A program made the position numbers and the translations under genes. Positions 330-18,520 of a stretch of DNA of 53,002 nt are shown here, piece by piece; positions within the stretch are counted from its first letter, which is position 1; every line of letters begins with the position of its first letter. The DNA is taken from the IMG/VR virus record IMGVR_UViG_3300049732_000296, positions 1 through 53,002 of that record; one strand, 5' to 3'. Under the pieces are notes generated by a model, which saw only the letters and a program-made list of their open reading frames with translations, ran no database searches and was not told the DNA's origin. Source of the stretch: a virus (taxonomy: Duplodnaviria; Caudoviricetes).

Positions 330-347
330 TGTCTCGACGTTGGGCCT

Positions 348-981: not shown

Positions 982-1325
982 TGGAGATCAGGGCGTTCAT
1001 CTCGGATGTCCTCAAGGCCGTGGTCGACGGTGTCGTCGACGCTCAGATGGCGACCAAGTCATCGGGGGCAGTGATCAGCCCGGCGCGGTCACGGGAGTTC
1101 AGCATCCCCACCGATTTATCTGGCGCCGGCGGCGACATTCAGACGATCGATTTCGAGATCGCGATCACGGCGACGAAGCCCGAGCGTGGGAAGGGCGAGG
1201 CCCATCCCACCGTCTGGGCCGCGACGTCTGACGAGGTCGGAAGGCCATCCAGCTCACGGGCCCTATCGAGGCTGAAGTTCCGAGTTCCGGTGGCGCTCCC
1301 CGTTCAGCGCTCGCCGAAGAAGTGA
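978..1325 (+). CDS. Trypco2-like domain protein
   Basis: ME(I)RAFISDVLKAVVDGVVDAQ...IDFEIAITAT...SRLKFRVPVALP pattern; homologs at 48219 and 48575. Confidence 0.6.
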   Translation: MMEIRAFISDVLKAVVDGVVDAQMATKSSGAVISPARSREFSIPTDLSGAGGDIQTIDFEIAITATKPERGKGEAHPTVWAATSDEVGRPSSSRALSRLKFRVPVALPVQRSPKK

Positions 1326-2383
1326 TCCGCAAGCCCCGCACCGGTCCCCGCCGGCCGAAGGGTACGGGCCGAATCGACCAGCTCCCCTCCGGTGCGTGGC
1401 GGGCGAGGATCACGATCGCCGGAAGGATCTACCAGAAGACCCTGGTGGGGCACGGCGCCAGGACCCGCGTCAGGGCCTGGCTGGAATCGAAGATCGGGGA
1501 GCGGGCGGCCATCGAGTCCGGAACGGGTGACGTCCGCGGCACCCGGCAAGGCGTCACGGTGGAGAGCCTGGCGGACGAGTACCTGGAGGACCTGCGGCAG
1601 ATCGGGCGCACCCCTGACACGCTCCGCGGGTACCGGCGGCACCTGGCCGTGGTGCTGCGGCACTGGAGCCGGGTGCGGCTGCGGGAGCTGACCGGGCCGA
1701 GGCTCGAGCAGATCCGCGCGGAGATGACCGCGTTCAAGTGGTCGCCGTCCACGGTCCGGAACCGGCTCGACAGGCTCACCGGCATGGCCCGGTTCGCCAT
1801 GCGCATGGGCTACATCCCGGCCCGCGTGCTCCCGGTGAGACGGCCGAAGGTGACCATCGCGTCCAGACCCCACCCGTACACCGACGCCGAGGTCGCCGCG
1901 CTGGTGCAGGCCGCGAAGGCTGCGGGGCCGCGCGAGCTGGTCGCGGTCCTGCTCGGCGCCGACGCCGGGCTACGCCGCGGCGAGATCATGCGGGCGAGCA
2001 AGGCCGACTTCGACCCGCACCAGCGACGGCTCCACGTCCCGATGGGCAAGACGGGATCGCGGTGGATCCCCGTAACGCGACGCCTGGCGCGCGCGCTTGA
2101 CCGCTGTGAGCCGTTCTCCACCGGGAAGTACGTCTGCCGCCCGACGTGGACGGACCCGACTCCGCTCGTTGGGTGGCTCCAGGACGTCTGGGCGGCCGCT
2201 GGCATCGATGGCGGCACGAGGCTGCACCGGTTACGGCACTACTGGGCCACGCTGATGGTGCGCAACGGCGCGAAGCTCGATCAGCTCCTCGCGTGGGGCG
2301 GGTGGGCCAATCTCTCCACGGTGCGGCGGTATCTCCACGAGCGGGACGACCTGGACCGTAGCCCGGTGGACCGGATTCGATAG
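1322..2383 (+). CDS. int: tyrosine recombinase / phage integrase A
   Basis: GLRRGEI, KT, HRLRH, GW..LSTVRRY catalytic motifs; N-terminal arm-binding-like beta region; adjacent tRNA fragment. Confidence 0.93.
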   Translation: MIRKPRTGPRRPKGTGRIDQLPSGAWRARITIAGRIYQKTLVGHGARTRVRAWLESKIGERAAIESGTGDVRGTRQGVTVESLADEYLEDLRQIGRTPDTLRGYRRHLAVVLRHWSRVRLRELTGPRLEQIRAEMTAFKWSPSTVRNRLDRLTGMARFAMRMGYIPARVLPVRRPKVTIASRPHPYTDAEVAALVQAAKAAGPRELVAVLLGADAGLRRGEIMRASKADFDPHQRRLHVPMGKTGSRWIPVTRRLARALDRCEPFSTGKYVCRPTWTDPTPLVGWLQDVWAAAGIDGGTRLHRLRHYWATLMVRNGAKLDQLLAWGGWANLSTVRRYLHERDDLDRSPVDRIR

Positions 2384-2621: not shown

Positions 2622-2652
2622 ACGGGCGCTCCCAGAAGGGAAGCAAAAGGGC

Positions 2653-2681: not shown

Positions 2682-2688
2682 ACCCCCC

Positions 2689-3655: not shown

Positions 3656-3657
3656 GC

Positions 3658-3816
3658 TTACCCCCGCCGGCGACGCGTCCGACGCACCACCACCCAGACG
3701 GCGTGGAGCGGCAGCGAGGTGACGAGGACGCCGACGTAGGTGGTCGAGCACTTCGAGGCAACCACGCCCAGCAGGATCAGCGCGTGCGCGAACACGTGCA
3801 TCCCGATGGTGCTCAC
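3658..3816 (-). CDS. small hydrophobic lysis-cassette protein (52 aa)
   Basis: MSTIGMHVFAHALILLGVVASKC...; homolog 51463..51606 (HGALLLLGTAGSKC). Confidence 0.6.
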   Translation of the reverse strand: MSTIGMHVFAHALILLGVVASKCSTTYVGVLVTSLPLHAVWVVVRRTRRRRG

Positions 3817-4148
3817 GAGTCACCTCCACCGTCCGAAACGTTCGGTGCCGTCAGCTTCTTCGACGCCCACACGACGCCGTAGCTGCCGACGACGGTTGCG
3901 ACCGACATGAGCGCGATCCCGGCGAGCGACGCTTCCCAGCCCTCACCCGGGAGCGCCAGGAAGCCGGCCCGCCAGCCGACGATCCCGAGGAGGAACGAGT
4001 ACAGGAGCGCGTTGTACCGCTTCCGGTTGCCCTTGTTGGGGTCGGGGCTCGTGCGCCCGATGGGCAGCGTCGCCCATTCCGAGAGCCCCATCGCACTTCC
4101 ACCGATGGTCACGAACTGCACCAGGTAGCGGGCGAGCATGTCGTCCAT
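3813..4148 (-). CDS. putative holin (about 3 TM segments)
   Basis: 111 aa hydrophobic protein near endolysin; homolog 51603..51941. Confidence 0.65.
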   Translation of the reverse strand: MDDMLARYLVQFVTIGGSAMGLSEWATLPIGRTSPDPNKGNRKRYNALLYSFLLGIVGWRAGFLALPGEGWEASLAGIALMSVATVVGSYGVVWASKKLTAPNVSDGGGDS

Positions 4149-4603
4149 CAGCGTCTCTCCTTCAGCAGCTCACCGAGCTGTGTCTTGACCTCTGCGATCT
4201 GACCGCCGACGTGCCCGAGAGCTCCGTGAAATCCGGCGATCGTGGCGTCGAACGTGGCCTTGGCGACGAGATCCTGGTAGAGCCGTTGCTTCTGATTCTC
4301 GGCCCACTCCATGTGCGATTCCTGCCAGGCATGGAGCGCGGCGATCTTTTCCTTGTTCTCCTCGTGCATCCGATTCGCTTCTTCCTTGCGCGCGCTTTCT
4401 CTCTCTGACCTGGCCGACTCGTTCGCCTCCATCGTCGCGCTCAGGGCTCGGAACGCCCCGAACAGTCGAATGAGGGCACCGACGGCGGAGCCGAGCAGGA
4501 CGCCCATCGCCGCCACGAGGACGCGCATCACGATGTCGCCGGTCGTGGTCTGCGGAGCATCGTGCGAGGCGAGCTGGGCCAGCACGGCGAGGAGCACGCT
4601 CAT
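4148..4603 (-). CDS. TM + coiled-coil lysis-associated protein
   Basis: Start MSVLLAVLAQ overlapping endolysin stop; homolog 51941..52429. Confidence 0.65.
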   Translation of the reverse strand: MSVLLAVLAQLASHDAPQTTTGDIVMRVLVAAMGVLLGSAVGALIRLFGAFRALSATMEANESARSERESARKEEANRMHEENKEKIAALHAWQESHMEWAENQKQRLYQDLVAKATFDATIAGFHGALGHVGGQIAEVKTQLGELLKERR

Positions 4604-5076
4604 GGCACCTCCGGCAGCGGGTCGACCAATCCTCGGAGCCACAGCAGCGGGTGGATCGGCGTGTCGTTGATCCGCACTTCCCAGTGGAGGTGGGGCGGGA
4701 TCCCTGGGCGGTCGGCGTTGCCGGTCTTCCCTGTTCGGCCGAGCTGGTCGCCGGCTTTCAGCACGTCGCCGATGGCGCACGAGCGCGACTTCAGGTGGGC
4801 GTACCTCGTCTCGAGCCCGTCCGGCCCGGCCAAGTAGACGACCTCGCCGTAGGTGGTCGAGACGCCCGAGCGCGTCACCATGCCGTCGTGGGCCGCATGG
4901 CACGGCCAGTCCTGCACGCACAGCTCGTCGACTCCCTTGTGGGCCTGCGGCTTGCCCTGCTCGTTGGTCCTGGTCCAGCCGAAGTCGCCGATGGAAGGGT
5001 TAGCGGTTGAGGTACGCATCGGCGGGAGACCGTCGTCACCGGGCAGGCGACCGAGGAGCGGGTGGACGCGGATCAT
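4600..5076 (-). CDS. M23 family peptidase, putative endolysin
   Basis: HKGVD, YAHL, GKTGNA, PHLHWEVR motifs. Confidence 0.9.
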   Translation of the reverse strand: MIRVHPLLGRLPGDDGLPPMRTSTANPSIGDFGWTRTNEQGKPQAHKGVDELCVQDWPCHAAHDGMVTRSGVSTTYGEVVYLAGPDGLETRYAHLKSRSCAIGDVLKAGDQLGRTGKTGNADRPGIPPHLHWEVRINDTPIHPLLWLRGLVDPLPEVP

Positions 5077-5420
5077 CGCGCCGCCCTGTGCTCAGCCTGG
5101 ATGCGTCTCCGGCGCCGCTGCTCCTCCTGGATCTCGCTATAGAGCCCCTTGCGTAGACCCAGGCGTTTCACCTGGTAGCACATGACGCGATTCGAGACCC
5201 CGAGAAACTCCCCCGCTCGCTTCTGCGTCGAGAAGCGATCCATGGCGCCCTTGTAGGCCAGTCGCTCCAGAGCCTCGAGTACCGTCTCGTTCGGGCGGCG
5301 CCGCAGGTCCACCGCGTCGAGCAGGCTCATCAGGAGTCGGGCGAGCGGCTCCTCCCCGAGATCCTCGATGCGCTTACGCGCGACGTGCAGCTCGTGGGTC
5401 TCCGTCAGCGTCAGGCTCAC
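5073..5420 (-). CDS. Fis-like helix-turn-helix protein
   Basis: LERLAYKGAMDRFSTQKRAGEFLGVSNRVMCYQVKRLGL; GTG start overlapping upstream stop; homolog at 52803 onward. Confidence 0.7.
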   Translation of the reverse strand: MSLTLTETHELHVARKRIEDLGEEPLARLLMSLLDAVDLRRRPNETVLEALERLAYKGAMDRFSTQKRAGEFLGVSNRVMCYQVKRLGLRKGLYSEIQEEQRRRRRIQAEHRAAR

Positions 5421-6508
5421 GGAACCCTCGTGAACCGCACCGCGTCGGCCACGACGCTCGCCGTGCCGGCCGAAGCCTTGCGAACGGTCACACTCGCCTG
5501 CCCGGTGACGAACTGGTGTGTTCCGAGCGCGGAGGCCGATGTCCACTGCCCGCTGATCCTCTGGTCGCGCGTCACCGAGGCGAGCAGAGCAGACCCGTCG
5601 CGGATCTCGTAGACCGTGGCCGGGTCGCGCGTGCTCGTGCTCGTCCAGTAGGCCTCGACCGCGAGGCGGCCCGCTATCCCAGCGCGCCACGTCCAGGTCG
5701 ATCCCGTGGCAGTTGTCACGTGCGCGGTCCCGCTGCCGCCAGGCGGATATCGGGTCGACGCGGGGGCGGTCTCCGACCATGATCCGCTCGAAGAGACTGA
5801 CGCGGAGTCCACGTTGTCCACGACCACGAGGTCAGGTCCGGGCGCTGGACCCGTCGACACAAGGTCCGAGCGCGTGAGGTTCTGGACCGTTCCAGGGATG
5901 ACCACGGCCGTGATCGTCGCGGGAACGTCCAGGTACGTGTTGTCCGGGTTCGTGATCGTAAGCGTCACAGTCTGCGGCGCCGTCGGAGACGAGACCACCG
6001 CCACGGTGAACGTCATCGACGTGCAGCTCGCCCACTGGACGGCCGACACCATCACGTCCTGGGAGTTGTCGGTCACCTGGAGCCCGCTCCTCAGATTCGT
6101 GCCGGTTACCGTTACCTGGACGGTTTGTCCCGCGAACCACTGCGCCGGGGCAATGCTCGAGACGGTGATCCGTGGCCAGCCGCTGATCTCGTTCGAGAAC
6201 TGCGCCGAGGGCGTGACCGTCCCGCCGACCGTGCAGGTTGCCTTGACGGCGACGAAGCTGGTCGTGCAGTCCGGAGCGGTGAGGTTGAACGCGGTGACGT
6301 TGCCCGTGGGAGTGACGGTCGAGTACGTCCCACTGGCCGTACCGCGGTGGACGGTGTACCCCTTCGTGTCACACCCAGTCGTCGGGAAGGCGACTGGGTC
6401 CCACCGGGCCGGGATCTCTCCGGCGAAGACCCGACACGCGGTCCACCCGCAGATGACCAACGAGATGACGATCGCCGCCAGCAGGCCCAAGAACCGTGCT
6501 CGCTTCAT
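5417..6508 (-). CDS. exported protein: signal peptide + Fn3-like + IPT/TIG-like + C-terminal CBM/golvesin-like domain
   Basis: GGAGG RBS; MKRARFLGLLAAIVISLVICGWTACRVFA; WDPV..GYTVHRG.ASG.Y; VTVTGTNL; VVVDNVD...VVADAVRF. Confidence 0.75.
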   Translation of the reverse strand: MKRARFLGLLAAIVISLVICGWTACRVFAGEIPARWDPVAFPTTGCDTKGYTVHRGTASGTYSTVTPTGNVTAFNLTAPDCTTSFVAVKATCTVGGTVTPSAQFSNEISGWPRITVSSIAPAQWFAGQTVQVTVTGTNLRSGLQVTDNSQDVMVSAVQWASCTSMTFTVAVVSSPTAPQTVTLTITNPDNTYLDVPATITAVVIPGTVQNLTRSDLVSTGPAPGPDLVVVDNVDSASVSSSGSWSETAPASTRYPPGGSGTAHVTTATGSTWTWRAGIAGRLAVEAYWTSTSTRDPATVYEIRDGSALLASVTRDQRISGQWTSASALGTHQFVTGQASVTVRKASAGTASVVADAVRFTRVP

Positions 6509-6519: not shown

Positions 6520-9500
6520 CTAGGGGCTCATACAAAACGAAACCAGCATCGTGCCCGCCGCAGCTACGGAAGCGCTGCCGACGACCTTGATATCAACCTT
6601 CCGGGAAGCAGCGATCGCGGGGACGTGCGTCAGGTCTGTGCACGTCGTGGCCGATCCGGTGATCGTGCAGGTAAGACTCGTCGCGGAGGTATTGTCCATA
6701 AGAGTGACAACCCAGGTCTCGCTGCCGGTGGGCGCAGCATCAACCTCGACGCGAAGCTGGTGGGCTTCCAGCGCCGCTGGCGTCAACGACTGCGCGTTGG
6801 TCTCGACCGCGAAGAGCGTTGCACTCCCGTTGATGGAGACGTACCTGGTGGCGTTCTCGGCTGGGTCGAAGTGCCCAGGGAACCAAGTCGTGCATGGCCG
6901 CGGTGCCGGATCGTTGGCGGAAACAACGACCGTCCCGCTGAGGTCTGGAAGGTAGGCGTTACGGTCGGCCGTGGGAAGACGCGTCAGCATGCAGATCTCG
7001 TCGTTGTCGGTGATCTCCGTGTAGCCGCCGGTCGCGCCGTCCGGCTCGACTCCCTTGAAGCAGATGCGCTGGCCGGCGCCGTCGTCCTCGTCGTAGGATC
7101 CGAGCCAAAGCGTCGAGTCGGCCTGGAATGAAAAGCTCTTGCGGACCTGGACGTCCTCCCCGGGCAGGTAATCCCAAAACACACACGGAGCCCCGCGCGT
7201 GGGGCAAAAACTCTTGTCGTAGATTTCGAGCAGTGGGGACTGCGCGAAGGCACCGGCGTTACTGGAGCCGAAGATCCCGATGGCCGGGTCAGTCGACCCG
7301 ACGTCGTGATGCGCGGCAAGCTGAAACGCCGGGTATCGGTGCGAGCCCCGAGGGTGCGGCCAGGCCAGCTTGTTCCCGAACATCGACCCGCCGTCGGTGT
7401 AGATCCCGCCATCCCACGGGACGAGGAACACCGGACGGTTCCAACCGAATTGGGTCATGTCGTTGGGCTGCCCCGCGAAGATCGTGAGCGCCGAGCCGTA
7501 GGTGAATGTGTTCACCGGCGGGGTGAGCGGCTCGTAAATCGCGACGCCGCCCATGTGAACGCCGAAGATGGGCCGGTCCCGTGTCTCGCCCGCCGTGCCG
7601 GTGCTCGAATCGGTCTCAACCCCAACGGCGTCAATCAGCGGCCCGGAGCAAACGGTCTGCGCAAAGAAGCACGGGCCATCAGCACCGCAGTCACCATCCA
7701 CCAAGCACCGCTTGGACCCGTCGCCGCTACAGAAGCTCTCTCCGATGTTGCACCCACCGCCGACGATCCATGAGTTATCGCCAGCGGCGTCCTTCCCGCC
7801 CTTGTAGTGTGACCCGCCGATATTCGGCATGTTCTTGTATTCGTCGAGTCGGTCCCAGGCCGCGGTGCATGAGCCCCCGGAAACGGGGCACCGGACACAC
7901 GATTCGCCCGCCGGGCATTGCACCGCGGTCTTGCACCGGGTCGCGGTGGTCGTCGAGCAGTACCCGACGACGCATTTCTCGCTGGGGCAATCCCCGTCGG
8001 CGTTGCAGGCGGTGCTCGTCGTCGTCTCGCATGAACCGATGTCCTGGAAGGCCGACCACTCCCCGATCGCGCCCCCGTCGAGGGTGCCGTCCGTGTCGCT
8101 GTCGCTGTAGGCCTTGGTCGGATCATCGAGCCGGACCCAGCGCTGGAATGGAACCTGGGCCATCGTGCAGTTGTTCCCGCTTCCACAGTGCGGTTGGTCG
8201 GCCGAGGAGAGCACGCGGTTCTTGCCGTCGCGCATGTCGGCCACGAGGGCATCCTGCTTCCCTGTCGAAGCTGTTGCCGGATTTGTGTCAACAAATGCCG
8301 TGGTGTCGTTCTCGTCGGAATCCACGCGGAGCAGACCATCCGTGCTGGGGAGATCAGCGAGGGCCGTGGCGATGTCCGTATAACCGTCGCTGCGGCGTTC
8401 CTGATTGATCCAGTCGACGAAGACGCCGGTGAAGAACGTCGTGGCGCGGCCCAGCGAGGTGGTGCCTACGGAATGCGTGGACGCGCTGGTCGAGTCGTCG
8501 AAGTTGACCACGTTGACCGGGGTCGCCTGTTCGTAGTTGTTCCAGATGTTGAAGTCGCGCGCGCCGTCCATGCCGCTGTCGTTGATGAGGCCCCACTCGT
8601 TCGTGCCGGCAGCGTTGCCCGTGGCGATGCCGCGGAACTGGTTGGCGGCGTTCAGTTCCAGGATGCCGCCGTCATAGCGCGTCCTGTTCGTCGCCGGGTT
8701 CCACGTCCAGCACGGGTCAGTGAGGTTGTCGTCGTCGAAGCAGATGGCCGTCGCTTCACTCGCGCTTGCGTACCCGAACTTGATGGTGGGGATACCCATC
8801 GTCACCTGCCCCCGCCGGTCCCCGGCCCCATCCCTCGCCCAGCGCATGACCTCCGTCGCGTTCCCTCCCGAGTTGTCGTAGGACGTCAACGTCAGGTCCG
8901 CGGTCGCGTTGTTGTCCCGCTCGAGCGTCCACAGCAGACGATCCCCTCCCGTGGTGGACATGAAGCGCATCCCGCACGAGAACCCGTCGCCGGTCTGGCA
9001 ACGGAACCAGTGGCTGGCCGCGGTCGATCGCAGGTTGACGTTCGAGTCCCATACGGTGTTGTCGGAGGCCGCGATCCTGGTCTTCTCGGCATCGCCGATG
9101 TAGGTACGCACCTCGCCGGTGGAGGTCGTCACGCGCTCGATGACCGTGCCGCGCACATAGGAGTCGCCTGTCTGGAACTTCGGGTCGTAGACAGTCACGA
9201 CGGTCGATGACGCGGCCTCGGCCTCGACGTAGCAGCGAGTATTGCCGCCCTGGACGAACGGCGAGTACACGGAAGCCTGGACCGCGCCGTCGAAGTAGAG
9301 CCCACAGTCGCCGGACGTGTCGTAGTCCTGCACACATCCGGTTCCGGCACCGGTGCAGCAGTCGTAGGGGTTGTCGAGCCCGAGGCATTCCGCGCTCGCG
9401 TTCTGCGCGGTCATCGCGTAGGACACGTCGATCAGCGTGACGCCGTTGACCCCGTCCTGACCCACGGGAAGCGTGGTGCCGCCAGGACCTATGAAGGCCA

Positions 9501-10527
9501 TGTCGGCCCGCTGCGCCGGGGTCCCGATGTGGGTGTTCAGAATCGTGATGTCCCGGCCGCCGGTCGCGTAGACGTGGTAGAGCGGCTCGGGGTACGGCGC
9601 CCCCGTGCACGTCCCGGTGCCGACCCCCGTGCAACACGGGAGCGGGGCTCCTGACCCGGTGCATGACGTGTTGTCGCGGCGTTCGCGCTCGAGGACGCCA
9701 CCGATGATGATGTTCCCGGTCTGCTGGTCGCCCCCGGTGGCCTCGAACGTGATGCAGTACTTCGTGACGTGCTCGCAGTCGATGGCCTGGATCAGGTTGA
9801 GGGAGCTGGTCCCTCGAATCCGCATCCCGATCTCTTGGTCGGCAACCTGAATCTTGGAGATGAGCGCGTTCTGAGCGTTGACCAGGTCGAGCCCCGTGCT
9901 ACCCGCCAGCGGCCCGTTGAAGATGTTCAGGTTCGAGATCTCCAGCTTGGCGCCGGCGGCGACCTGGAACCCGGTGGTGGCGATATCGTTCATGTTGAGG
10001 CTGCAGCCGGTGACAGCCTTCGCTCGTGCGCCCACACCGCCCGCAGGCGCGTAGGTCAGAAGCGTTCCGGACACGTTAGCCTTGAACCCGCTGCCGTCCC
10101 CGAAGCACTTGACCGTCACGCCGTCAGGGATCGTGAGCGGGTTGACCGTGTACATCCCTCGGACGTGGAGCTCGCGCTCGGGTCCCGAGGCCGCAGCGTC
10201 GAGCGCCGCTTGGATCGCGGTCGTGTTCTGCGCGACGGTCCGAGCATCGTGCGCGCCGCTCTGCCATTGCATGTGGCGCACGTCCCAGGGGTCCGAACAA
10301 TAGGTCCACTTCAGCGTGGTCGGGTCGCAGCAATACGTCTCTCCGGCTCCATCGCCGCTCGCGACCTGGAGCGCATACTTCGAGTTGCCGCATCCGAGTT
10401 GACACGGTGCGGTGCCGCACTTGGTATCCGGGGAGTCGATGACCGAGACGACCGGGCCCGTCCCTTGGGCCCTGGCCGGTAGCGCGAGCCATGCGAGTAC
10501 CGTGAGGAGCAAGACAGCGCGCCGCAT
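6520..10527 (-). CDS. large tailspike/tail-fibre-like protein with Sec signal peptide and Cys-rich inserts (about 1335 aa)
   Basis: TGATG coupling to upstream tail gene; MRRAVLLLTVLAWLALPARA|Q; TTAIQAALDAA beta-helix start; PTADRNAYLPDLSGTV fibre-like motif. Confidence 0.75.
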   Translation of the reverse strand: MRRAVLLLTVLAWLALPARAQGTGPVVSVIDSPDTKCGTAPCQLGCGNSKYALQVASGDGAGETYCCDPTTLKWTYCSDPWDVRHMQWQSGAHDARTVAQNTTAIQAALDAAASGPERELHVRGMYTVNPLTIPDGVTVKCFGDGSGFKANVSGTLLTYAPAGGVGARAKAVTGCSLNMNDIATTGFQVAAGAKLEISNLNIFNGPLAGSTGLDLVNAQNALISKIQVADQEIGMRIRGTSSLNLIQAIDCEHVTKYCITFEATGGDQQTGNIIIGGVLERERRDNTSCTGSGAPLPCCTGVGTGTCTGAPYPEPLYHVYATGGRDITILNTHIGTPAQRADMAFIGPGGTTLPVGQDGVNGVTLIDVSYAMTAQNASAECLGLDNPYDCCTGAGTGCVQDYDTSGDCGLYFDGAVQASVYSPFVQGGNTRCYVEAEAASSTVVTVYDPKFQTGDSYVRGTVIERVTTSTGEVRTYIGDAEKTRIAASDNTVWDSNVNLRSTAASHWFRCQTGDGFSCGMRFMSTTGGDRLLWTLERDNNATADLTLTSYDNSGGNATEVMRWARDGAGDRRGQVTMGIPTIKFGYASASEATAICFDDDNLTDPCWTWNPATNRTRYDGGILELNAANQFRGIATGNAAGTNEWGLINDSGMDGARDFNIWNNYEQATPVNVVNFDDSTSASTHSVGTTSLGRATTFFTGVFVDWINQERRSDGYTDIATALADLPSTDGLLRVDSDENDTTAFVDTNPATASTGKQDALVADMRDGKNRVLSSADQPHCGSGNNCTMAQVPFQRWVRLDDPTKAYSDSDTDGTLDGGAIGEWSAFQDIGSCETTTSTACNADGDCPSEKCVVGYCSTTTATRCKTAVQCPAGESCVRCPVSGGSCTAAWDRLDEYKNMPNIGGSHYKGGKDAAGDNSWIVGGGCNIGESFCSGDGSKRCLVDGDCGADGPCFFAQTVCSGPLIDAVGVETDSSTGTAGETRDRPIFGVHMGGVAIYEPLTPPVNTFTYGSALTIFAGQPNDMTQFGWNRPVFLVPWDGGIYTDGGSMFGNKLAWPHPRGSHRYPAFQLAAHHDVGSTDPAIGIFGSSNAGAFAQSPLLEIYDKSFCPTRGAPCVFWDYLPGEDVQVRKSFSFQADSTLWLGSYDEDDGAGQRICFKGVEPDGATGGYTEITDNDEICMLTRLPTADRNAYLPDLSGTVVVSANDPAPRPCTTWFPGHFDPAENATRYVSINGSATLFAVETNAQSLTPAALEAHQLRVEVDAAPTGSETWVVTLMDNTSATSLTCTITGSATTCTDLTHVPAIAASRKVDIKVVGSASVAAAGTMLVSFCMSP

Positions 10528-11321
10528 CAGAAGGGCCCTCCGCCGACCAAGAACGGCTGCCAGCGGTACACGTCGTCGTAGCCCCTCAGGCACTTCCGCT
10601 GTTCACCTTGACGGCCGCTCCCCTCAGGCGGGCGAATGATGGCGAGTGCATCCCGCCACAAGTAGCTGGGGGCGGGGAGCTCGTCCTCGTGGCTCACGAT
10701 GAGGACAGCCGCCTCGGGAGCCGCACCGGGCGGGGGCGCTTGCATCGGCGGTACCGGAGGGGCCGCGAGCGTTGCCCAGCGCCAGGCGCGCCGCGGGACC
10801 GTGATGGCGGTCGCCGCCGTACGAATATGCAGGCGCGCGACGCTGATGTTCATCCGCGATTGGAAACTGAGCCACTTGTACTGGCCGCGCCACGCGCGCA
10901 CGTCCTGCACGATCTCGACCGGACGATCGGCGGGCTTGGTCGTCCCGACCCCGGTCTCGCCGACGACGTAACCCGCTTCGCTGTTCGTGTCGTTGATCAG
11001 GAGCCTGGTGTCGTGCAGATAGCCGAAGATCGGACCGACCTGGAAGTCGTTGAGAATCGCTTCGATCGAGTGCAGCAGGCGAATCCAGAGGACATCGGCC
11101 CAGGGCGGTATCCAGTACTCGAACCAGCTGTCGCCAACGACCGTTTCCTCCGGCCGATACCAGGTGTCTGGAACGGGGTTCTCGACGAGAAGGTCGATCT
11201 CCGGTGTCACGGCTGGACGGTTGCGCAGCTCGCTTTGGCGCTGGAGGACGACCTGCCACCAGCGCGGATCCATTTCCGTGCCCGGGCGGCGGTGCTGCTT
11301 CTTCCACTCGACCCAGGTCAT
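10527..11321 (-). CDS. minor tail protein, unknown function
   Basis: Start MTWVEWKKQH overlapping upstream stop; position in tail operon. Confidence 0.55.
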   Translation of the reverse strand: MTWVEWKKQHRRPGTEMDPRWWQVVLQRQSELRNRPAVTPEIDLLVENPVPDTWYRPEETVVGDSWFEYWIPPWADVLWIRLLHSIEAILNDFQVGPIFGYLHDTRLLINDTNSEAGYVVGETGVGTTKPADRPVEIVQDVRAWRGQYKWLSFQSRMNISVARLHIRTAATAITVPRRAWRWATLAAPPVPPMQAPPPGAAPEAAVLIVSHEDELPAPSYLWRDALAIIRPPEGSGRQGEQRKCLRGYDDVYRWQPFLVGGGPF

Positions 11322-11803
11322 GCTTCCCGCCTGAGCTGTGTGGCGCCGCCGTTGTAGCGCACGTGGAGAGTTCCGCCTCCACTGACCATCTTCAGTTGTG
11401 TCTCGAGGCTCGAGAGTCCGATCGCAGCCTTGACATGCGCGTCCGGGATGATCACCGAAATGGTCGTGCCAGGAGCCGCCACGACGATGTCTATGGATTC
11501 GACGTACGCCCCTGATCCGAGTCGGACCTGGACCTTCCCCGTCCCGCCACCGGTCACCCAGGCCTCGAAGCGGACCTCGAGCAGGACCTCTCCCTGGAGC
11601 GTGGCGACCGCGGGCGGTATCGGAGCCTCCTGGTTGACCTTCGTGACGTAGGCCGCCCCGGCCTCCGTGACCTCGGCGAAGTTGTAGGCGAGCTGCTGGG
11701 TGATCAGCGCCTCCTGGTTGTTGTGCAGGTCGTCGAGGTAGGCCTCGATCACTGGGTTGTTGCCGACGAGCGCCGCGAGGTCGACCCACGGGAGGGCGCT
11801 CAT
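11318..11803 (-). CDS. minor tail protein
   Basis: 161 aa, coupled to neighbours, follows hub gene. Confidence 0.6.
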   Translation of the reverse strand: MSALPWVDLAALVGNNPVIEAYLDDLHNNQEALITQQLAYNFAEVTEAGAAYVTKVNQEAPIPPAVATLQGEVLLEVRFEAWVTGGGTGKVQVRLGSGAYVESIDIVVAAPGTTISVIIPDAHVKAAIGLSSLETQLKMVSGGGTLHVRYNGGATQLRREA

Positions 11804-14064
11804 GGCGGCACCGTGTAGGGCAGGGACCCGTCAGCGAAGCCGCTCTCGTCCGGTGCAACGAAACAGAACTCGCGTTGCCCTTCGGTCGCCGTGTCGTAGG
11901 TGACGCCCGCCAGGCTATTCGGTCCGACGATCGCCGGTCTGTTGAGCGTGCGGCGCTCGCGGATACGAAGTCGAACCACGCCGCGCGCCAGGTCCTGGGC
12001 GACCCGGACCATGTGGAATGTTCGCGGCGTGGTCTGCCTGGTTCCAGCTTGCAGGTCGGGGATGCTCCTGATGAGCACCGTGACCGTGTTGAGCAGGGAT
12101 ACGTCTTTGTACTTCAGAAACGCATCGATCTCGATCGGCGTCGAGGGGTTGGCGAGCTCCAGGAGGATGCGAGTCGCCGCCTTGCGGGCGATGGTCTCTC
12201 CGTTCAGGTCAGGGAAGCCGAGCCGGCCGGTTCGCAGCCCACGCGTCTCGAGCTTGATCGGCTCCGACTTCCCGAAGGCGTCGACGCTATCGTCGTCCAC
12301 AGCCGCCGGCAGCTGCCGGTCGTATTCGTTCTCCGCCGCGTTCCAGTCCGAGCCGAAGGTGACGCTGTTCACGGCGTCCGCGAACGAGCGCGACCACTTC
12401 GGCCGGTAGTCCTGGGAGACCCACTCCTCACCGATTGCGATGTTGGTCGGCGGCACCCGGAACAGCTTGTCGAGGCTCCACCGGCCCAACGAATCGACCA
12501 CCGGACGGAGTCCGAACGATCGCAAGAGCTCCTCGACCCACTCCCGGACGTTGTCGATCGAGTCCGACTCCACGAACAACGCGGCATCGCCGGACGTAGC
12601 GCGGCCAGCGTTGTCGAAGGCCGGATGGGGCCAATACGCCGCGAGAATGTTCTCGGCGTGGTCGATGTTCATGAAGTCGACGTCGATCCCGAGACCATCA
12701 CCGTCGCCGGCGTCGTAGGGACCGTTCGGCGCGGAGTCGAATGGACCCTCGAGGATCGGCCCGGGGCCCGCGTCGACCCAGACCGTGCTCGCCGTGCCTC
12801 CGGTGTTGTTGTGGATCTGGACCGAGAGCCCGTCGCCGCCGGGGAATCCTGGATCCCAGCGGAAGACGATTGTCGCGCGTCGGACGTCGACCCCGAGGTC
12901 GAAAGCATGGAGCGTCGCGCTTCCTGTCCAGACGGTCCCCGTCCCGTCGTCGTCTAGGTGCACATTCTGGGTCGAGTTGCTAACGAGAATCCCGAGGCCA
13001 TCGGCGAACGTAGCTCCGGCCTTCGCGAGCACGGTGAGCCGATACCACTTGCCCGGCGTCAAGACCGCCCCGAAGGCGCGGGAGATGCTGAGAGTCCCGG
13101 CGACCGTGCGGACCATCTTCACCGCCGAGAAGCCGCAAACGTGCTCGATGTCCTCGCGCGCGATCGTGCCCGCTCCGATGTTCTCCACCCAGCCGTCAAG
13201 GTTCGTGTCCGAGATCCAGTCCTCGAGGAAGGGGTTGCTGCCGACCGCGGCCGGCGTCGACGCCCCGGCTGCGTCTGTCGTAGTGAGCGTCCGCAGCGCG
13301 AGCTCGCCGACCCCGCCGCGCAGGACCCACACCGCCGTGATGCTCGTGTTGCCCGTCACCGGGAAGACATATGGGGACTGGCCCACCCCGAAGACGCGCC
13401 GCTCGACGCCCGTCAGGGCCCACTTCTCTCCGACGATCGCCTTGGCCCCATACCTGACGATCTCCTGGAGTTTCGCGTCCGTGTCCGAGAGGAGCGCGTA
13501 ACCGCTCGCCGGCCAGTCCGATGGATCTCCGGAGAGAACGATCGTCGTCGCCAGGACGTCAAGGCCGGAGGGTTGGGTCTCCGTGTCGAGGCTCAAGCTT
13601 CCGCCGGAGACGGATTCGAACAATCCAGCGGACATCGCCGCGAGCACGTTCCCGAGGACGAATCGGTAGCCGCCGCCGTGCCGGCCCTGGACCTCGTAGT
13701 CCTCGAGCACCAGCTGTTGGCCCGGCCACTCAGCCTCGGGCGTTCCCCGGAATCCGGCGCGCATGACCACGGTGGCCCGCGCCAGGCCCGCGCTGTCGTG
13801 GTCCTTGAGCCAGGCCGTCACCGTCTCGTCGAGATCCGGGGCCCAGAACGACTGCCCACCCACCTGCAGCCGCCCGGTCTTCGCGTCGTAGGTAGAGCCG
13901 TCCTCGGCTTCCGGCATAGCTCCGGAGAACACGGTCCAGCCGGGAGGATGCGAGAGCCCCGCTGCGCTCCGGTCCGTGACGAATCGGGTCTCGAGGTTCG
14001 GGAAGTCGTACGCGACGACGACGTCCTTGCCCGTGAGCTTGTCGCGCTGGGTGAGGTAGCTCAT
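11800..14064 (-). CDS. baseplate hub / Tal-like tail tip protein with inserted CBM-like domain
   Basis: 754 aa, second gene after tape measure; insert starting GSNPFLEDW...GW. Confidence 0.6.
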   Translation of the reverse strand: MSYLTQRDKLTGKDVVVAYDFPNLETRFVTDRSAAGLSHPPGWTVFSGAMPEAEDGSTYDAKTGRLQVGGQSFWAPDLDETVTAWLKDHDSAGLARATVVMRAGFRGTPEAEWPGQQLVLEDYEVQGRHGGGYRFVLGNVLAAMSAGLFESVSGGSLSLDTETQPSGLDVLATTIVLSGDPSDWPASGYALLSDTDAKLQEIVRYGAKAIVGEKWALTGVERRVFGVGQSPYVFPVTGNTSITAVWVLRGGVGELALRTLTTTDAAGASTPAAVGSNPFLEDWISDTNLDGWVENIGAGTIAREDIEHVCGFSAVKMVRTVAGTLSISRAFGAVLTPGKWYRLTVLAKAGATFADGLGILVSNSTQNVHLDDDGTGTVWTGSATLHAFDLGVDVRRATIVFRWDPGFPGGDGLSVQIHNNTGGTASTVWVDAGPGPILEGPFDSAPNGPYDAGDGDGLGIDVDFMNIDHAENILAAYWPHPAFDNAGRATSGDAALFVESDSIDNVREWVEELLRSFGLRPVVDSLGRWSLDKLFRVPPTNIAIGEEWVSQDYRPKWSRSFADAVNSVTFGSDWNAAENEYDRQLPAAVDDDSVDAFGKSEPIKLETRGLRTGRLGFPDLNGETIARKAATRILLELANPSTPIEIDAFLKYKDVSLLNTVTVLIRSIPDLQAGTRQTTPRTFHMVRVAQDLARGVVRLRIRERRTLNRPAIVGPNSLAGVTYDTATEGQREFCFVAPDESGFADGSLPYTVPP

Positions 14065-15011
14065 GGCACCTCACCGTTGACGTTGAACCGGTAGTCATAG
14101 TGCCGGTACTCGACTCCGGGCCGGATGTCGACGCGCAGCTGGTCGTCGTGGAAGGCGTGGGTGTAGTGGTGTGCGTCGTTGGTCGAGCGGTCACGATCGA
14201 CCCAGAGGACGACTCGACCAACGTACGGGCTCCCGAGCCACGCCGAGAAGCGCTTCGCGCCGGGGTCGATCGTGCCGTGGTTCACGAGCACGTTCCGCAG
14301 GCTCAGATCGAGCCTCGTCTGCGCGGCGGTGAACCTCACGACCTCCGCTACCTTGTTGCCCATGTTGACCGCGACGCCGGTCTGCACCCGGTCGCTGACC
14401 TCACGGAAGCCCTTGTCCACCAGGTCGAAGACCGCACCGACGTAGACGCGGTCCCAGTAGGCGTTCGAGGCGGCGTTATAGCCCGCCACGGCGATGTCGT
14501 AGGTCAGGATGACGTCCACCCAGGCCGCGGAGGCATGGATCGTCTCGGCAGCGACCCGGAGGTACCAGGGGCCCGCGCCGGCGACGATCGAACGGCTGGC
14601 CGCAGGGGCGAGCAAGACGCCGCTTCCTGGAGCCGACGTCCCGCCGGAATACTGCTCGATTGCGATCGACGCGTTGTCGAGCGCGCGCTGGTCCACGCCC
14701 TTGAGGAGCGCGGCCGCCGCGATCTCTCCGCTCCCGTAGAGCTTCAGGAATCCAACCGCATCGGCGGCGGCCGTGCGCTGACGCAACACCGCCTTGCTCC
14801 CGCCCGCGCCGCTGAGGGTGTTCTGCCGGACGGATTGAGTCGATGGGAACCCGATCCCAGGGCTGTGGAACTCTGCGGTAGTGACCTCGAGGATCTCATT
14901 CGAGCCGAGCGAGTCGTCCCATCCCGTGGGCACGAAGGGACCCGGGGCATCGTCCTCGAAGCTGTGGTTGTCCAGCTCCTCGACGCCGTACAGGATGAGC
15001 GGCCGCCCCAT
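14061..15011 (-). CDS. distal tail (Dit-like) protein with inserted CBM-like domain
   Basis: First gene after tape measure; LDNHSFEDD..P..GW...YWDRVYV. Confidence 0.55.
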   Translation of the reverse strand: MGRPLILYGVEELDNHSFEDDAPGPFVPTGWDDSLGSNEILEVTTAEFHSPGIGFPSTQSVRQNTLSGAGGSKAVLRQRTAAADAVGFLKLYGSGEIAAAALLKGVDQRALDNASIAIEQYSGGTSAPGSGVLLAPAASRSIVAGAGPWYLRVAAETIHASAAWVDVILTYDIAVAGYNAASNAYWDRVYVGAVFDLVDKGFREVSDRVQTGVAVNMGNKVAEVVRFTAAQTRLDLSLRNVLVNHGTIDPGAKRFSAWLGSPYVGRVVLWVDRDRSTNDAHHYTHAFHDDQLRVDIRPGVEYRHYDYRFNVNGEVP

Positions 15012-18000
15012 CAGCTCCTCCCGGAGAACGGCGCGATGCGGCCGCGACGGATGAGCGCCTCGAGCTCCTCGGCGATCGCCTCGATGAACCGGCGCGGGAT
15101 CTCCTCCGAGAGCACCGGGGCGGCATTGGTGAACGAGATCGCGACCTCGGGGCCGCGGTTCACCAGCGTCTCGATGGCGCGTACGATCGCGCGCTGTGAC
15201 TCGACGCTCTCGCGGCCCGGACCGCCGGTGATCGTCAGGACCTCCGGAACTGGCGCGGCGACCGTCGCCCGCAAGCGGGAGATCTCGTCGCTGAAGTCCG
15301 GCGCCGACGGCGGCTCGAACCGTGAGCTGAGGTCAGCCAGGACGTCCTGGATATCGGTGAGTCCGAGGGTGCTCGCGACGTGGTCAGCAGCCGGCCCCTC
15401 CAGCGGCAGCACGGCCTCCTGGCGATCGTCCTCGCTGAGGTGGAACAGCCCCTCACGCCTGGTCAGCCCGCCCTCGCGCAGGCCGATTGCTCCACCACCG
15501 AGCGCGGCTCCGAAACCCGCGCCGGCGGCCGCAGCTCCTGGCGTGCCGGCGGAGACGAGGCCGAGGTGTGCCGCCGCGACCGCCGGGGCCGTCAGGTTGA
15601 TCGGGAACGGCGCCGCGGACATCGAGGCGAACGTGTTCGCGAACGTGAGCCCGAAGGCCTTGCCGAACTCCGCGGTGGCCTCGCTCGCGACGGTGGCGGC
15701 CGTCAGCTTGCCGACAACGAGCCGCCGCAGCCCCCACTCCAGGAGCAGGGCGATCGACTGTGCGGCGACGCCCTTGATGAGTCGGCCGAAGGATCCGGCA
15801 GCTTCCTGTCCGAAGACCACGGCCTGGCCCGCCCAATGGGACAGCGAGCTGATCCCCTGGTTGGCCAGGTCGCCGAAGTGCTCGCCGATCGTCTCGACGA
15901 AGAACTCGGAGTAGCCGATCAGCTCGTCGAAGAAGTCCTGCCACTGGTCCGTGGCCGGCGGCTCGGCGGCTTCCTGGGCGAGCCCGTTGAACCTCTCGAA
16001 GGCCTCCAGGTCGAAATCCGGCGTCGTCGGCGCCTCGAACTCCCCTCCTTCGAAGCCCGGGATCGCGAGCGGCTCGAAATCCTCTCTCAGCGCCTTGAGA
16101 ATGGTGACCCGGTCGATGAGCTTCTGGAGTCCCTCGCCGGCGGTACCGCCTGCGGTAGCGACCGCGTCGCCCATCGCGAGGATGTCGGGGCCGAGCGCCT
16201 CGAGAATCGACGACAGGTCCACGCCTTGCGCCACCGCGAGCTCGACCTGCGCGGTGAGATCTCTGGCGAACCGCTCCCCCATCGCCTCCGTTGCCAGGCC
16301 GAGCGATGCGAGGATCTTTTCGAGGTCCGCCTGGCCCTCGACGGCCTGCTGCGTGGCGGAGGCGAATCGCCTCTCCTCGTCGGCCGTCGATGCGATCGCG
16401 GCCTTGAGCTTCGCGAGCTGCTGTTCGGTCGTCCCGCCCGCCGCGACGATCTCCGCCGCCAGCTCGGGGAACTGCGCGGTCAGCGACTGCAGCTCCTTGT
16501 CCGGGTCGACGAGCGCGACGGCCTTCTTGAGCCTTTCGAGCTGCTCGACCGTCGTCCCGCCAGCGGCAACAGACGTGGCGGCGAGCTCGGGGAACCGCTG
16601 GGAGAGAGCACGCAATTCGTTCTGGGCATGCAGTAGAGGCGCGGCGAAGGACTCAACCGCTTGTCGAGCTGCCTCAGCGGCATCCCGAACTTCCTTGGGC
16701 AAAAGGTCAGCGCCAGATGCAAAGGTTGGCGGCGTGCGAAGACCGGATGGGATCACGACCGTCTTGGTGCTCGCTTCCGCGATCCTCTTGAGCAACCCTT
16801 CGGCGGCCTCGAGCGCTAGAACCTGCTCGTTGGTGATGACCACCAAGCCCTTGTCCACAGCCTTGCGGAGGCTGGCGACCGATACCTCCAGCGAGTTGAT
16901 CGAGCTGGGAAGCGGTGCCTTCTGTAGATCGCGCTCGAACATCTTCTCCAATGCGGCATCGATGCCCGAGAGCTGGGAGAACAGCCGACCGAGTCCGAAA
17001 CTCAGCGCCCCGACAGTCGCGACGAGCCCCACCATGCCGGCCTTCTGCGCGAGCGTGGCCGACGTCCAAACCGTCGTGAGGCTCGTGGTCCTGGCCATCG
17101 CAACCGCGGCTGTGTCGTTCATCAGGGCGAGACGGAGCAGCGCAGCACTGAACGTTCCGGTGGCGGCGGAGGCCTGGCCGAAGAGCCTAATGGTCGTCCC
17201 GGTAACGATGAGCAGCGGGCCCGTTGCGGCCACGACGGCGCCGACGCCGATGACGACATCCCTGGTGCCCTCGTCCATCTCGCCAAAGGCCTGGGCGAAG
17301 TCCGCCCCGAGATTGGCGACGCGCAGCAGTACCGGGGCGAGCTGCCCCCCCAGGTCGATCGCGACGTCGTTGATGCGTTGCCGAGCCAGCTGCAATTGGG
17401 CGGCGTTGGTCTCCGCGCGTTTCCCGAACTCGGTCTGGAGCGCCGTAGCCTCGGACCATGCGTCCGAGCCCTGCTGGAGCGCGGCGGTCATCTGGTCCGC
17501 CGCGGCGCTCGAGCGGAGGAGAGCGTCACGGACGCGCACGTTCTCGAGCCCGAGCTGCTCGAGGACACCGAAGACGTTGCCTCCGCGTTCCTCGAGGGTG
17601 CCGAGACCCTCGATGAAGCGGCGCACGGCCTCTGCGGCGTCCTCCTCGAACAGGGTCCGGAACTCCTCGACCGAGAGCCCAGCGGTCTCCGCGAAGGTCC
17701 GGAGCCGCTCGTCCCCGGTCCGGACCGACTTGGCGATCTCGATGAACGTGCGGCTGACCGCGGTCCCGCCCGCCTCGGCCTCGACCCCGACGCTCGCGAG
17801 CGCGGCCGCGTAGGCCAGGACGTCGGCCTCGCTCAGGTTCAGCTGGCGGCCGGCACCGGCGATCCGGAGGCCCATCTCGAGGATCTCGCCTTCCGTCGCG
17901 GCGAACTTGTTCCCCAGCTCGACGATGGTCGACGCCAGGCGCTCACTATCGGAGATGGACGTCCCCATGATGTTCGAGAAGCGCGCCAGCCCGACCGCGC

Positions 18001-18520
18001 CCTGCTCGCCGGCGAGGTTCGTCGTGGCTCCGAGCTTGGCGATGGTCGCGGTGAACCCGACGAGCTCTGGGGCCTTCACGCCGATCTGGCCGGCGATCTC
18101 CGCGATGCGGTTCAGTTCGTTGACTTCGATGGGGATGGCGTTGGGACCCGCGGCGAGATCTCGGATCCCCTGTCGAATCTGGCCCAGCTCTTCGTCCGTG
18201 GCATCGATCGTCTTCCGGACTCCGGCGAAGCTGCTCTCAAAGTCGAGTGCGGCTTTCGTCGATGCTGCACCGATCGCGAGAACGGGGGCCGAGGCGAGCA
18301 AGGAGAAGTCGGTGCCGAAGGTCCGGATCCGGCTGCCGACGCGGTCGAGATCTCGGGAGACGTCGTCGAAGCTCCGGCGCGTGGCGGCCGCGGATCGGCT
18401 CGCGGCCTGCTCGACGCCGGTCGAGATCCCCGTCAGCTTCTGTTCCGTGACCCGGGCGAATCGATCGACAACGACGGTGCCGTCGTCCCGTACGGTCAGG
18501 ACCAGCTGGACGTTCGCCAT
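15011..18520 (-). CDS. tail tape measure protein (TP901-type)
   Basis: 1169 aa helical; FESSFAGVRKT, LGNKFAATEGEI, EAEAGGTA motifs; TM segments. Confidence 0.95.
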   Translation of the reverse strand: MANVQLVLTVRDDGTVVVDRFARVTEQKLTGISTGVEQAASRSAAATRRSFDDVSRDLDRVGSRIRTFGTDFSLLASAPVLAIGAASTKAALDFESSFAGVRKTIDATDEELGQIRQGIRDLAAGPNAIPIEVNELNRIAEIAGQIGVKAPELVGFTATIAKLGATTNLAGEQGAVGLARFSNIMGTSISDSERLASTIVELGNKFAATEGEILEMGLRIAGAGRQLNLSEADVLAYAAALASVGVEAEAGGTAVSRTFIEIAKSVRTGDERLRTFAETAGLSVEEFRTLFEEDAAEAVRRFIEGLGTLEERGGNVFGVLEQLGLENVRVRDALLRSSAAADQMTAALQQGSDAWSEATALQTEFGKRAETNAAQLQLARQRINDVAIDLGGQLAPVLLRVANLGADFAQAFGEMDEGTRDVVIGVGAVVAATGPLLIVTGTTIRLFGQASAATGTFSAALLRLALMNDTAAVAMARTTSLTTVWTSATLAQKAGMVGLVATVGALSFGLGRLFSQLSGIDAALEKMFERDLQKAPLPSSINSLEVSVASLRKAVDKGLVVITNEQVLALEAAEGLLKRIAEASTKTVVIPSGLRTPPTFASGADLLPKEVRDAAEAARQAVESFAAPLLHAQNELRALSQRFPELAATSVAAGGTTVEQLERLKKAVALVDPDKELQSLTAQFPELAAEIVAAGGTTEQQLAKLKAAIASTADEERRFASATQQAVEGQADLEKILASLGLATEAMGERFARDLTAQVELAVAQGVDLSSILEALGPDILAMGDAVATAGGTAGEGLQKLIDRVTILKALREDFEPLAIPGFEGGEFEAPTTPDFDLEAFERFNGLAQEAAEPPATDQWQDFFDELIGYSEFFVETIGEHFGDLANQGISSLSHWAGQAVVFGQEAAGSFGRLIKGVAAQSIALLLEWGLRRLVVGKLTAATVASEATAEFGKAFGLTFANTFASMSAAPFPINLTAPAVAAAHLGLVSAGTPGAAAAGAGFGAALGGGAIGLREGGLTRREGLFHLSEDDRQEAVLPLEGPAADHVASTLGLTDIQDVLADLSSRFEPPSAPDFSDEISRLRATVAAPVPEVLTITGGPGRESVESQRAIVRAIETLVNRGPEVAISFTNAAPVLSEEIPRRFIEAIAEELEALIRRGRIAPFSGRS

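Follow-up and report, generated by a model that had tools for sequence, protein, structure and literature searches.

What is a tail-fibre-like protein with a signal peptide doing in the tail operon of a phage? The question is raised by a minus-strand gene (6520..10527) that encodes a protein of 1335 amino acids, referred to here as the target, in IMG/VR virus record IMGVR_UViG_3300049732_000296. The window analyzed is the complete record, a linear sequence of 53,002 bp with a GC content of 67% and a CheckV completeness of 100%. Tailed-phage fibres normally fold in the reducing cytoplasm, without signal peptides, and attach via an N-terminal virion-binding domain. The preliminary description of this DNA proposed that the protein is exported and then either joined to virions at or after lysis, or displayed on or released from the host. 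Judged from the sequence, export of the target from the cytoplasm is very probable. As for its fate after export, the leading interpretation, to which slightly less than even confidence is given, is that the target is a non-virion, envelope-acting glycan-binding or depolymerase fibre that is made late.

Gene start, signal peptide and cysteine content

The reading frame of the target is open from a GTG at 10593, and the stretch from 10593 to 10527 overlaps the upstream gene. The ATG at 10527-10525 shares its A with the TGA of that gene (10529-10527), which forms the TGATG at 10525-10529 that had been reported beforehand as a sign of translational coupling. The sequence GGAGG lies approximately 9 nt upstream of the ATG. 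The in-frame GC content at third codon positions (GC3) is 0.70–0.85 from 10527 onward and 0.40–0.70 upstream of it. Translation from this ATG gives the protein of 1335 aa that begins with MRRAVLLLTVLAWLALPARA followed by QG. The public gene call for the target (P0002, 1250 aa) begins at M86 and is therefore without the signal peptide and the Cys-containing N-domain. The M86 start is disfavoured because GC3 is coding-like from 10527 and because the homologous N-terminal region of P0018, the copy of the target in a second phage contig (L002), begins with a signal peptide. Residues 21–85 of the target are open, high in GC3 and 28% identical to P0018. The preliminary description had allowed for a true start downstream of the hydrophobic segment; GC3, the ribosome-binding site (RBS) and the TGATG overlap all favour 10527.

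The signal peptide spans residues 1–20 (10468..10527, minus strand) and presents an MRR n-region, a 13-residue hydrophobic core and a P-A-R-A c-region. The predicted cut falls after Ala20 and before QG, with Ala at both the -3 and -1 positions. By a heuristic reading, the N-terminus agrees with what is expected for Sec and signal peptidase I (SPase I), namely a positive n-region, a core of 7–15 residues and small residues at -3/-1, so that the cleavable signal peptide described earlier stands. N-termini were scored by the best 10-residue Kyte-Doolittle window within the first ~30–40 residues. When the record's 46 candidate genes were ranked by this score, the downstream neighbour came first with 3.23 and the target second with 2.76, followed by values of 2.33, 2.25 and 2.07. 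Tat export was considered and rejected. Sec is preferred because the RR at residues 2–3 is not conserved (TK in P0018, KK in P0008) and the peptide is short and strongly hydrophobic. A lipoprotein was likewise rejected, there being no Cys at +1.

The target belongs to a small family. A search with residues 1–1200 returned 16 matches at E ≤ 1e-3 among 1.84 billion representative sequences, including the window's own protein and three that match by motif only. A family set of 16 sequences was assembled from the target and 15 others, which came from this search, from a look-up of its clusters and from L002. Ten of the 16 are signal-peptide-like with scores of 2.17–3.41 (the target, P0018, P0003, P0006–P0009, P0011, P0019 and P0020). 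The other six comprise five that begin inside conserved regions, and are N-truncated fragments, and one (P0005) that is unclear. The signal peptide has been kept in the homologues despite divergence, with only 30% identity in this segment between the two phage copies. As controls, 26 fibre-like proteins were taken that share only a junction motif with the target and have, by eye, the N-termini of ordinary phage tail fibres. None of these 26 canonical fibres is signal-peptide-like.

The "dozens of cysteines" noted beforehand amount to 50 in 1335 residues (3.7%), none of them in the signal peptide, versus 21 in 6441 residues (0.33%) for 14 head and tail genes of the same record. Ten family sequences contain 247 Cys in 9285 residues (2.66%) and the 26 control fibres contain 19 in 20,209 (0.09%). 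The contrast with the controls in both signal peptide and Cys content therefore places the target in a separate branch of fibre-like proteins, one that is Cys-rich and exported. With a signal peptide conserved in P0018 and the family, an extreme Cys content and an export signal on the adjacent gene as well, the export part of the earlier interpretation is well supported.

These data bear directly on the simplest alternative, an ordinary cytoplasmic tailspike whose real start is M86 or whose hydrophobic N-terminus is not used for export. The public gene call would agree with such a protein, as would the absence of signal peptides from most known tailspikes and from all 26 controls. It is nonetheless very unlikely, since coding-like GC3 begins at 10527 where the RBS and TGATG overlap are found, and with a start at M86, 255 nt that are open and codon-biased would go unused. 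Moreover, the signal peptide region recurs in nine relatives, among them P0018, where its position is homologous, and a count of 50 Cys would be very uncommon in a phage protein that stays in the cytoplasm.

Relatives in other phages are rare. The 50,697 GenBank phage records contain no match to the target or to the product of the gene that follows it, and word-based searches with the whole target and with residues 690–1335 found only the window's own protein. When P0006, P0003 and an alignment (A3) were used as queries, no relative was found in viral contigs. Scans of IMG/VR identified one other viral contig with a family member, which is L002, and two further alignments (A4 and A5) returned only this contig.

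Domain organization and fold of the target

From its N- to its C-terminus, the target is composed of a signal peptide, a small Cys-containing N-domain, a β-helix, a Cys-rich module, a junction motif and an exchangeable tip. The small N-terminal region of the mature protein (residues 21–85; 10273..10467, minus strand) contains 6 Cys. A doubled-Cys ...LKW..C segment within it can be recognised by eye in P0018 as well. AlphaFold modeled the N-terminal 125 residues with low confidence. Scans of the target against Pfam, PHROG and NCBIfam returned no match to an N-terminal virion-attachment domain. A complex prediction of target residues 21–140 with the 264-aa and 161-aa upstream proteins scored 0.01 and produced no interpretable complex.

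Residues ~100–480 (9088..10230, minus strand) form a right-handed parallel β-helix according to the AlphaFold model, Foldseek and VIA-align. Model confidence is high in this region (pLDDT ~72–93 outside of two Cys-rich insertions), as compared to a mean of 54.9 for the whole model. The pectate-lyase-3-like start proposed in the preliminary description, NTTAIQAALDAA, is found at residues 101–112, and the corresponding fold was modeled. A Pfam scan of the target found neither Pectate_lyase_3 nor any other family, and the β-helix is supported at the fold level only. For P0018, the Pfam Beta_helix family scored 22.9 bits, under the cut-off of 25.9.

A Foldseek comparison to tailspikes, suggested at the outset, placed the Sf6 tailspike at the top (E = 1.8e-6), followed by Det7, CBA120 TSP2 and the K5A lyase. 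At E ≤ 1e-3, there were 36 matches in the PDB and 95 in BFVD. An all-against-all structural alignment with VIA-align gave a broad tie at Z = 26–30 between phage proteins (Geobacillus virus E2 ORF18, 29.7; Det7, 28.6; CBA120 TSP2, 28.4) and secreted bacterial proteins (PfbA, 29.4; AlgE4, 28.7; RbmB, 28.0). Lyases, hydrolases and epimerases aligned with Z = 22–30, as is expected of the pectate-lyase-superfamily fold. From this tie, it follows that the fold does not tell a virion protein from a secreted one.

Of the two Cys-rich loop insertions in the β-helix, the first (residues ~289–307) is absent from the second phage's copy. Both insertions (~9600–9670 and ~9330–9390; residues 289–307 and 381–398) carry a CCTG.GTG..C-type Cys motif, and this motif is the only part of the target matched by two unrelated Cys-rich repeat proteins (P0015, E = 1.6e-4; P0017, E = 4.5e-4).

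The β-helix is followed by a poorly conserved middle region of low pLDDT (residues 481–690; 8458..9087, minus strand) that is common only to P0003 and, weakly, to P0018 (26% identity). The conserved C-terminal module (residues 691–1184; 6976..8457, minus strand) is common to P0004–P0013 and P0018. It has no Pfam or PHROG match and no PDB sequence match in a profile search at E ≤ 1. A model of the C-terminal half (residues 690–1335) calculated from a 12-row alignment was unusable (pLDDT = 42.7). The best ESM Atlas score was 0.79, below the 0.9 level, with viral clusters at the top, and provides a lead only. Inside the module is a Cys-rich repeat run with 16 Cys in residues 833–960 (7648..8031, minus strand). 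The corresponding repeats of P0018 have weak, sub-threshold matches to DUF7107 (E = 0.0031) and Myxo_Cys_RPT (E = 0.011), and this repeat stretch is the part that was matched in many genomes when the C-terminal module was searched.

The fibre-like motif remarked on earlier, PTADRNAYLPDLSGTV, is present at residues 1185–1200 (6928..6975, minus strand), and belongs to a class of tail-fibre junction motif common to the 26 canonical fibres. Beyond it lies the tip domain (residues 1201–1335 and the stop codon; 6520..6927, minus strand), which is of a type designated A. At least four unrelated tip types occupy this position among the homologues. Type A occurs in P0001 and P0014 (48% over 125 aa), type B in P0004, P0005, P0009, P0013 and P0018, type C in P0006, P0007, P0008, P0011 and P0012, and type D in P0010/P0020.

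A variable tip after a conserved junction is also what would be expected of a polymorphic-toxin-like secreted protein, in which the tip would be a toxin domain mounted on a fibre stalk. Secreted polymorphic toxins with tail-fibre repeats have been described (PMC3482391). The tips of this family are, however, small Cys-containing domains with no toxin family match in Pfam or NCBIfam. The gene that follows the target is conserved between the two phages (38% identity) though their tips differ (types A and B), so that its product does not behave as a cognate immunity protein. A toxin is thus the most improbable of the alternatives considered here.

A two-gene cassette between tail and lysis genes

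In the window, the target slot is preceded by a tape measure gene (15011..18520, minus strand; Pfam PhageMin_Tail, 2.8e-18; PHROG tape measure, 6.6e-97) and four coupled genes. Three of these (11318..15011, minus strand; 161, 754 and 316 aa) are presumed to be tail-tip genes, and the fourth (10527..11321, minus strand; 264 aa) is the one whose stop overlaps the target ATG. None of the four proteins had a family match in Pfam or PHROG, or above the cut-off in NCBIfam, and PDB sequence searches with the 754-, 316- and 264-aa proteins gave nothing meaningful. With this gene order and the codon overlap, the earlier assignment to the receptor-binding slot of the tail operon is confirmed.

In L002, P0018 (1300 aa) occupies the same slot, preceded by a tape measure gene and then by genes for proteins of 719 and 221 aa. 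The start of P0018 also overlaps the upstream gene's stop, and translational coupling of the target to the tail genes is therefore found in both phages. P0018 begins with a signal peptide. A 363-aa ORF located upstream of the L002 tail genes (669–1760) also begins with a long hydrophobic segment.

The target and P0018 are 46% identical overall, with large differences along their length. Identity is 25–30% in the signal peptide and N-terminal region (residues 1–125 of the target), 43–47% in the β-helix (residues 126–285 and 321–480), 26% in the middle region (residues 481–680), 85% at the start of the C-terminal module (residues 681–848), 47% in the rest of this module (residues 849–1184) and 11% in the tip (residues 1201–1335). 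The 85%-identical block of 168 residues corresponds to 8457–7954 of the window and 11543–12046 of L002. Its presence amid ~45% identity suggests either recent recombination or strong constraint.

The gene downstream of the target (5417..6508, minus strand; 363 aa), referred to here as the partner, overlaps the target's end with its start and encodes a protein with a hydrophobic N-terminus that is either a signal peptide or a signal anchor. It contains a Golvesin_C domain (1.7e-14), which is read here as a carbohydrate-binding-type domain, and a TIG-like match below the cut-off (0.0081). The gene after P0018 in L002 encodes a homologue of the partner (38% identity, E = 1e-55), and is followed by an ORF that by eye is endolysin-like and then by small membrane proteins. 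The target and the partner are the only strong matches between the window and the 15.6 kb of L002 that were compared. When the tail-tip proteins of the window and L002 were compared as 754/719-aa, 264/221-aa and 161/221-aa pairs, no similarity was found (best E of 2.1, 4.4 and 1.8, respectively). From this sequence comparison, the target and partner form a two-gene cassette that sits between tail and lysis genes and moves independently of the tail-tip genes by co-transfer. In both phages, the cassette directly adjoins the lysis genes.

The lysis region of the window (3813..5076, minus strand), just downstream of the cassette, contains a Peptidase_M23 gene (4600..5076; M23, 4.5e-21), a holin-like 111-aa ORF (3813..4148) recognized by eye only, and an ORF with a coiled coil and a transmembrane (TM) segment, the latter also assigned by eye only. 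Between the partner and the M23 peptidase, at 5073–5416, is a small ORF with a C-terminus that by eye only resembles a Fis-type helix-turn-helix, and a Pfam scan of the full 235-aa ORF found no match. A regulator at the boundary of the tail and lysis genes, if real, would be unusual.

Relatives of the target are also found in cellular genomes. P0007, which has a signal peptide, the C-terminal module and a type C tip, is encoded on a 452-kb contig of a Terriglobia metagenome-assembled genome (MAG; G001). Its neighbours, an M28 peptidase and an ABC transporter, indicate a non-phage chromosomal context, and no relative of the phage's terminase or tape measure protein was found in this genome. The full C-terminal module was found in a single genome of each of two samples, one of 119 genomes from the same class and one of 401 genomes from the phylum. 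Tip type B alone was found in three further genomes, in two of them on proteins with N-termini that by eye are hydrophobic, and one of these two has housekeeping neighbours. Phage fibres and cellular fibre adhesins of the Bdellovibrio type are linked by the junction motif and tip types, which occur on phage proteins and on cellular secreted proteins alike. With respect to the host, no terminase relative was found at E ≤ 1e-20 in the 119 genomes of the class, and 14 of the 401 genomes from the phylum gave a match to the capsid protein, at ≤ 33% identity. Among cultured phages, those of Streptomyces have the best-matching terminase, at ~52% identity.

The remainder of the record is that of a temperate, siphovirus-like soil phage in which the minus strand carries most of the genes. 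At least half of the sampled words of the record were present in 7 of 15 listed soil metagenome runs, and 4 of these 7 were flagged as possible sources. Its minus strand encodes the terminase (28409..30442), a portal-like gene (26760..28412) and an 829-aa ORF (22910..25399) in which the C-terminal ~320 residues match PHROG head maturation protease and major head protein; this ORF may be a fused protease-capsid gene. The integrase (1322..2383) is on the plus strand, and no tRNA was found in the record. At 31350–32777 is a 475-aa protein with a ParB-like N-terminus fused to a DNA methyltransferase (PHROG 498, E = 4.8e-112). The right end of the window (47492–53002) is collinear with 229–5275 in four blocks at 70–82% nucleotide identity, which hold small ORFs, ORFs resembling a spanin and a holin, and the beginning of the small gene that follows the partner. 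The sequence between these blocks differs in its integrase-like ORF (48892..50034) and in its endolysin-like ORF (52429..52806), the latter resembling that of L002. The record stops exactly where a second cassette would be expected. In sequence terms, this arrangement suggests that a related second prophage begins here in tandem, or else that two variants were joined in the assembly.

Site of action and comparison with known systems

The phage tailspike depolymerases are an obvious point of reference. These proteins are made and trimerised in the cytoplasm, and have no signal peptide, few Cys and recognisable N-terminal particle-binding domains. The target resembles the Sf6 tailspike (2vbk), Det7 gp208 (6f7k), CBA120 TSP2 (5w6p/6w4q) and the K5A lyase (2x3h) in having a β-helix of similar size (Foldseek E = 1.8e-6 to 5e-5; VIA-align Z = 27–28.6) and a gene that follows tail-tip genes. 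In contrast, it has a conserved signal peptide, 50 Cys and no recognisable anchor, and beyond the β-helix it continues for another ~850 residues that include a fibre junction and a tip. By its predicted export signal, the target breaks with one defining feature of virion tailspikes. The secreted β-helix enzymes and adhesins, including RbmB of V. cholerae (9ozd), AlgE4 (2pyg), PfbA (3zpp/4mr0) and alginate lyases, share both the fold (VIA-align Z = 26.8–29.4) and export; however, their genes are cellular and they have neither a fibre junction nor a tip.

Export of phage products has precedents of a different kind. Lom of λ, which is encoded among tail genes, Llp of T5 and Spackle of T4 are phage-encoded exported accessory proteins. 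The signal-peptide endolysin Lys44 of phage fOg44 and the SAR endolysins are Sec-exported for lysis (PMC6116005). All of these are tailed-phage products that leave via the Sec system of the host, as predicted for the target, and that act in the envelope. Unlike the target, they are small, not fibre- or tailspike-like and have roles in lysis, receptor blocking or exclusion.

The closest architecture is that of the mosaic adhesive trimer (MAT) fibres of Bdellovibrio bacteriovorus, to which the target is likened by their described architecture alone. MAT proteins are ~1000 aa in length and consist of a signal peptide, a conserved N-domain of ~130 aa, a phage-like fibre or β-helix and diverse C-terminal tips (PMC10769870). 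They resemble the target and its family in that a fibre with varied tips comes after the signal peptide, and constitute a secreted cellular family as do P0007 and the tip-B proteins. The target differs by being carried by a phage inside a tail operon, and a Pfam scan found no S74 domain in it. A second comparison is PblB of Streptococcus mitis and S. pneumoniae, a prophage tail-fibre-like protein that is also a carbohydrate-specific host-surface adhesin (PMC4508584). Pneumococcal PblB is reported with a predicted signal peptide, while in S. mitis tail morphogenesis requires PblB, which gains the surface via phage-induced permeabilisation (PMC4508584). PblB sets a precedent for action at the host surface by a protein of the tail-fibre type, but its host is monoderm and it has neither sequence similarity to the target nor a Cys-rich architecture.

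From these parallels, the target might be a surface fibre of lysogenic conversion, expressed from the prophage as a secreted or displayed adhesin or glycan-modifying fibre in the manner of the MAT proteins or PblB (PMC10769870; PMC4508584). Such a fibre could serve in attachment, matrix remodelling or superinfection exclusion. The phage is temperate with an integrase, and the cellular homologues have the same architecture of signal peptide, fibre, junction and variable tip. The genetic context argues otherwise, as start/stop overlaps on both sides place the gene inside a late operon. Around the target, there were no promoter-like sites (1.1 expected) by the sigma-70 consensus, the only one applied, and nine terminator-like sites (6.1 ± 2.6 expected), which is not an excess. 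Two RNA libraries hold short contigs identical to the record; among the 16 pieces listed, 2 are from the target, 1 from the partner and 13 from tail, tape measure and neighbouring structural genes. These contigs give no sign that the cassette is expressed by itself, a weak indication since DNA carry-over is possible. Lysogenic conversion is considered unlikely for the target.

The interpretation of the target as an exported, non-virion fibre would proceed as follows. The target would be made on a late tail-lysis transcript, as inferred from the overlapping stop and start codons, threaded through SecYEG and, as its sequence indicates, cut after Ala20. It would then fold oxidatively outside the cytoplasm as a disulfide-stabilised protein, given that it contains 50 Cys as compared to ~0.3% in virion genes. 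If exported and folded outside the cytoplasm, the target would therefore take no part in cytoplasmic tail assembly. It would most likely be free or envelope-associated and, going by its fold, bind or cleave host surface polysaccharide, with the partner possibly supplying carbohydrate binding. Exopolysaccharide around the dying cell could be cleared in this way, or receptors there destroyed, which would let progeny escape without re-adsorption. A cassette that is independent of tail-tip genes and adjoins lysis genes, a partner with Golvesin_C and cellular relatives without a phage all favour this interpretation, which still falls a little short of an even chance.

Several observations weigh against it. 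The top Foldseek matches of the model are virion tailspikes, and a virion role would explain why the target has been retained in the tail operon. In each of the two phage records, a fibre junction motif is found in this gene alone, and no other receptor-binding candidate was recognised. Swapped tips are a typical trait of receptor-binding proteins. Between the two phages, both the first ~125 residues and the tail-tip genes diverge, in the pattern expected of a tail-specific anchor. In addition, the signal peptide calls are from our own heuristic, which combines Kyte-Doolittle hydrophobicity with the -3/-1 rule, as opposed to SignalP. Finally, the term "periplasm" presupposes a diderm host.

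Many of these points favour the alternative in which the target is an exported receptor-binding protein that docks onto finished, fibre-less tails when lysis mixes the compartments, such that virions are completed post-lysis. This alternative draws support from the tail-operon slot with coupling in both phages, the sole fibre motif in either record, a tailspike-like β-helix joined to a junction motif common to canonical fibres, exchangeable tips, an N-terminal region that diverges together with the tail-tip genes and, weakly given possible DNA carry-over, RNA-library contigs that cover the target and tail genes alike. Late docking is physically possible, as P22 tailspikes attach to tail-less heads in vitro. 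However, the target has no recognisable virion-anchor domain, the cassette is common to phages whose tail-tip proteins, among those compared, are unrelated, the cellular relatives function without any phage and the contents of the cell are diluted at lysis. Precedent is also lacking: term searches of open-access full text found no description of a Sec-exported virion fibre or other virion protein in a tailed phage, an absence that these searches do not prove. Post-lysis docking is a serious but less probable alternative, and of the two outcomes offered in the preliminary description, display on or release from the host is at least as likely as docking onto the virion.

Either outcome would have consequences for how exported phage proteins are recognised. 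Prediction of receptor-binding and virion proteins usually assumes that they are cytoplasmic, and an exported, Cys-rich branch of fibres would be missed or mis-started; mis-starts such as that of P0002 could hide exported phage proteins in databases. Should the target dock on the virion, the assembly of tailed phages would in some cases be finished outside the cytoplasm, and disulfide-rich adhesins would be available to phages. A two-compartment completion of the virion, which we regard as the less probable outcome, would if real be an assembly route undescribed for Caudoviricetes, and would also offer a route for the exchange of modules between phage fibres and cellular secreted fibre adhesins. 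If the target does not dock, it would represent a large, phage-borne, envelope-acting and tailspike-like factor in poorly known soil phage-host systems, one that could aid release, destroy receptors or be displayed on the host surface.

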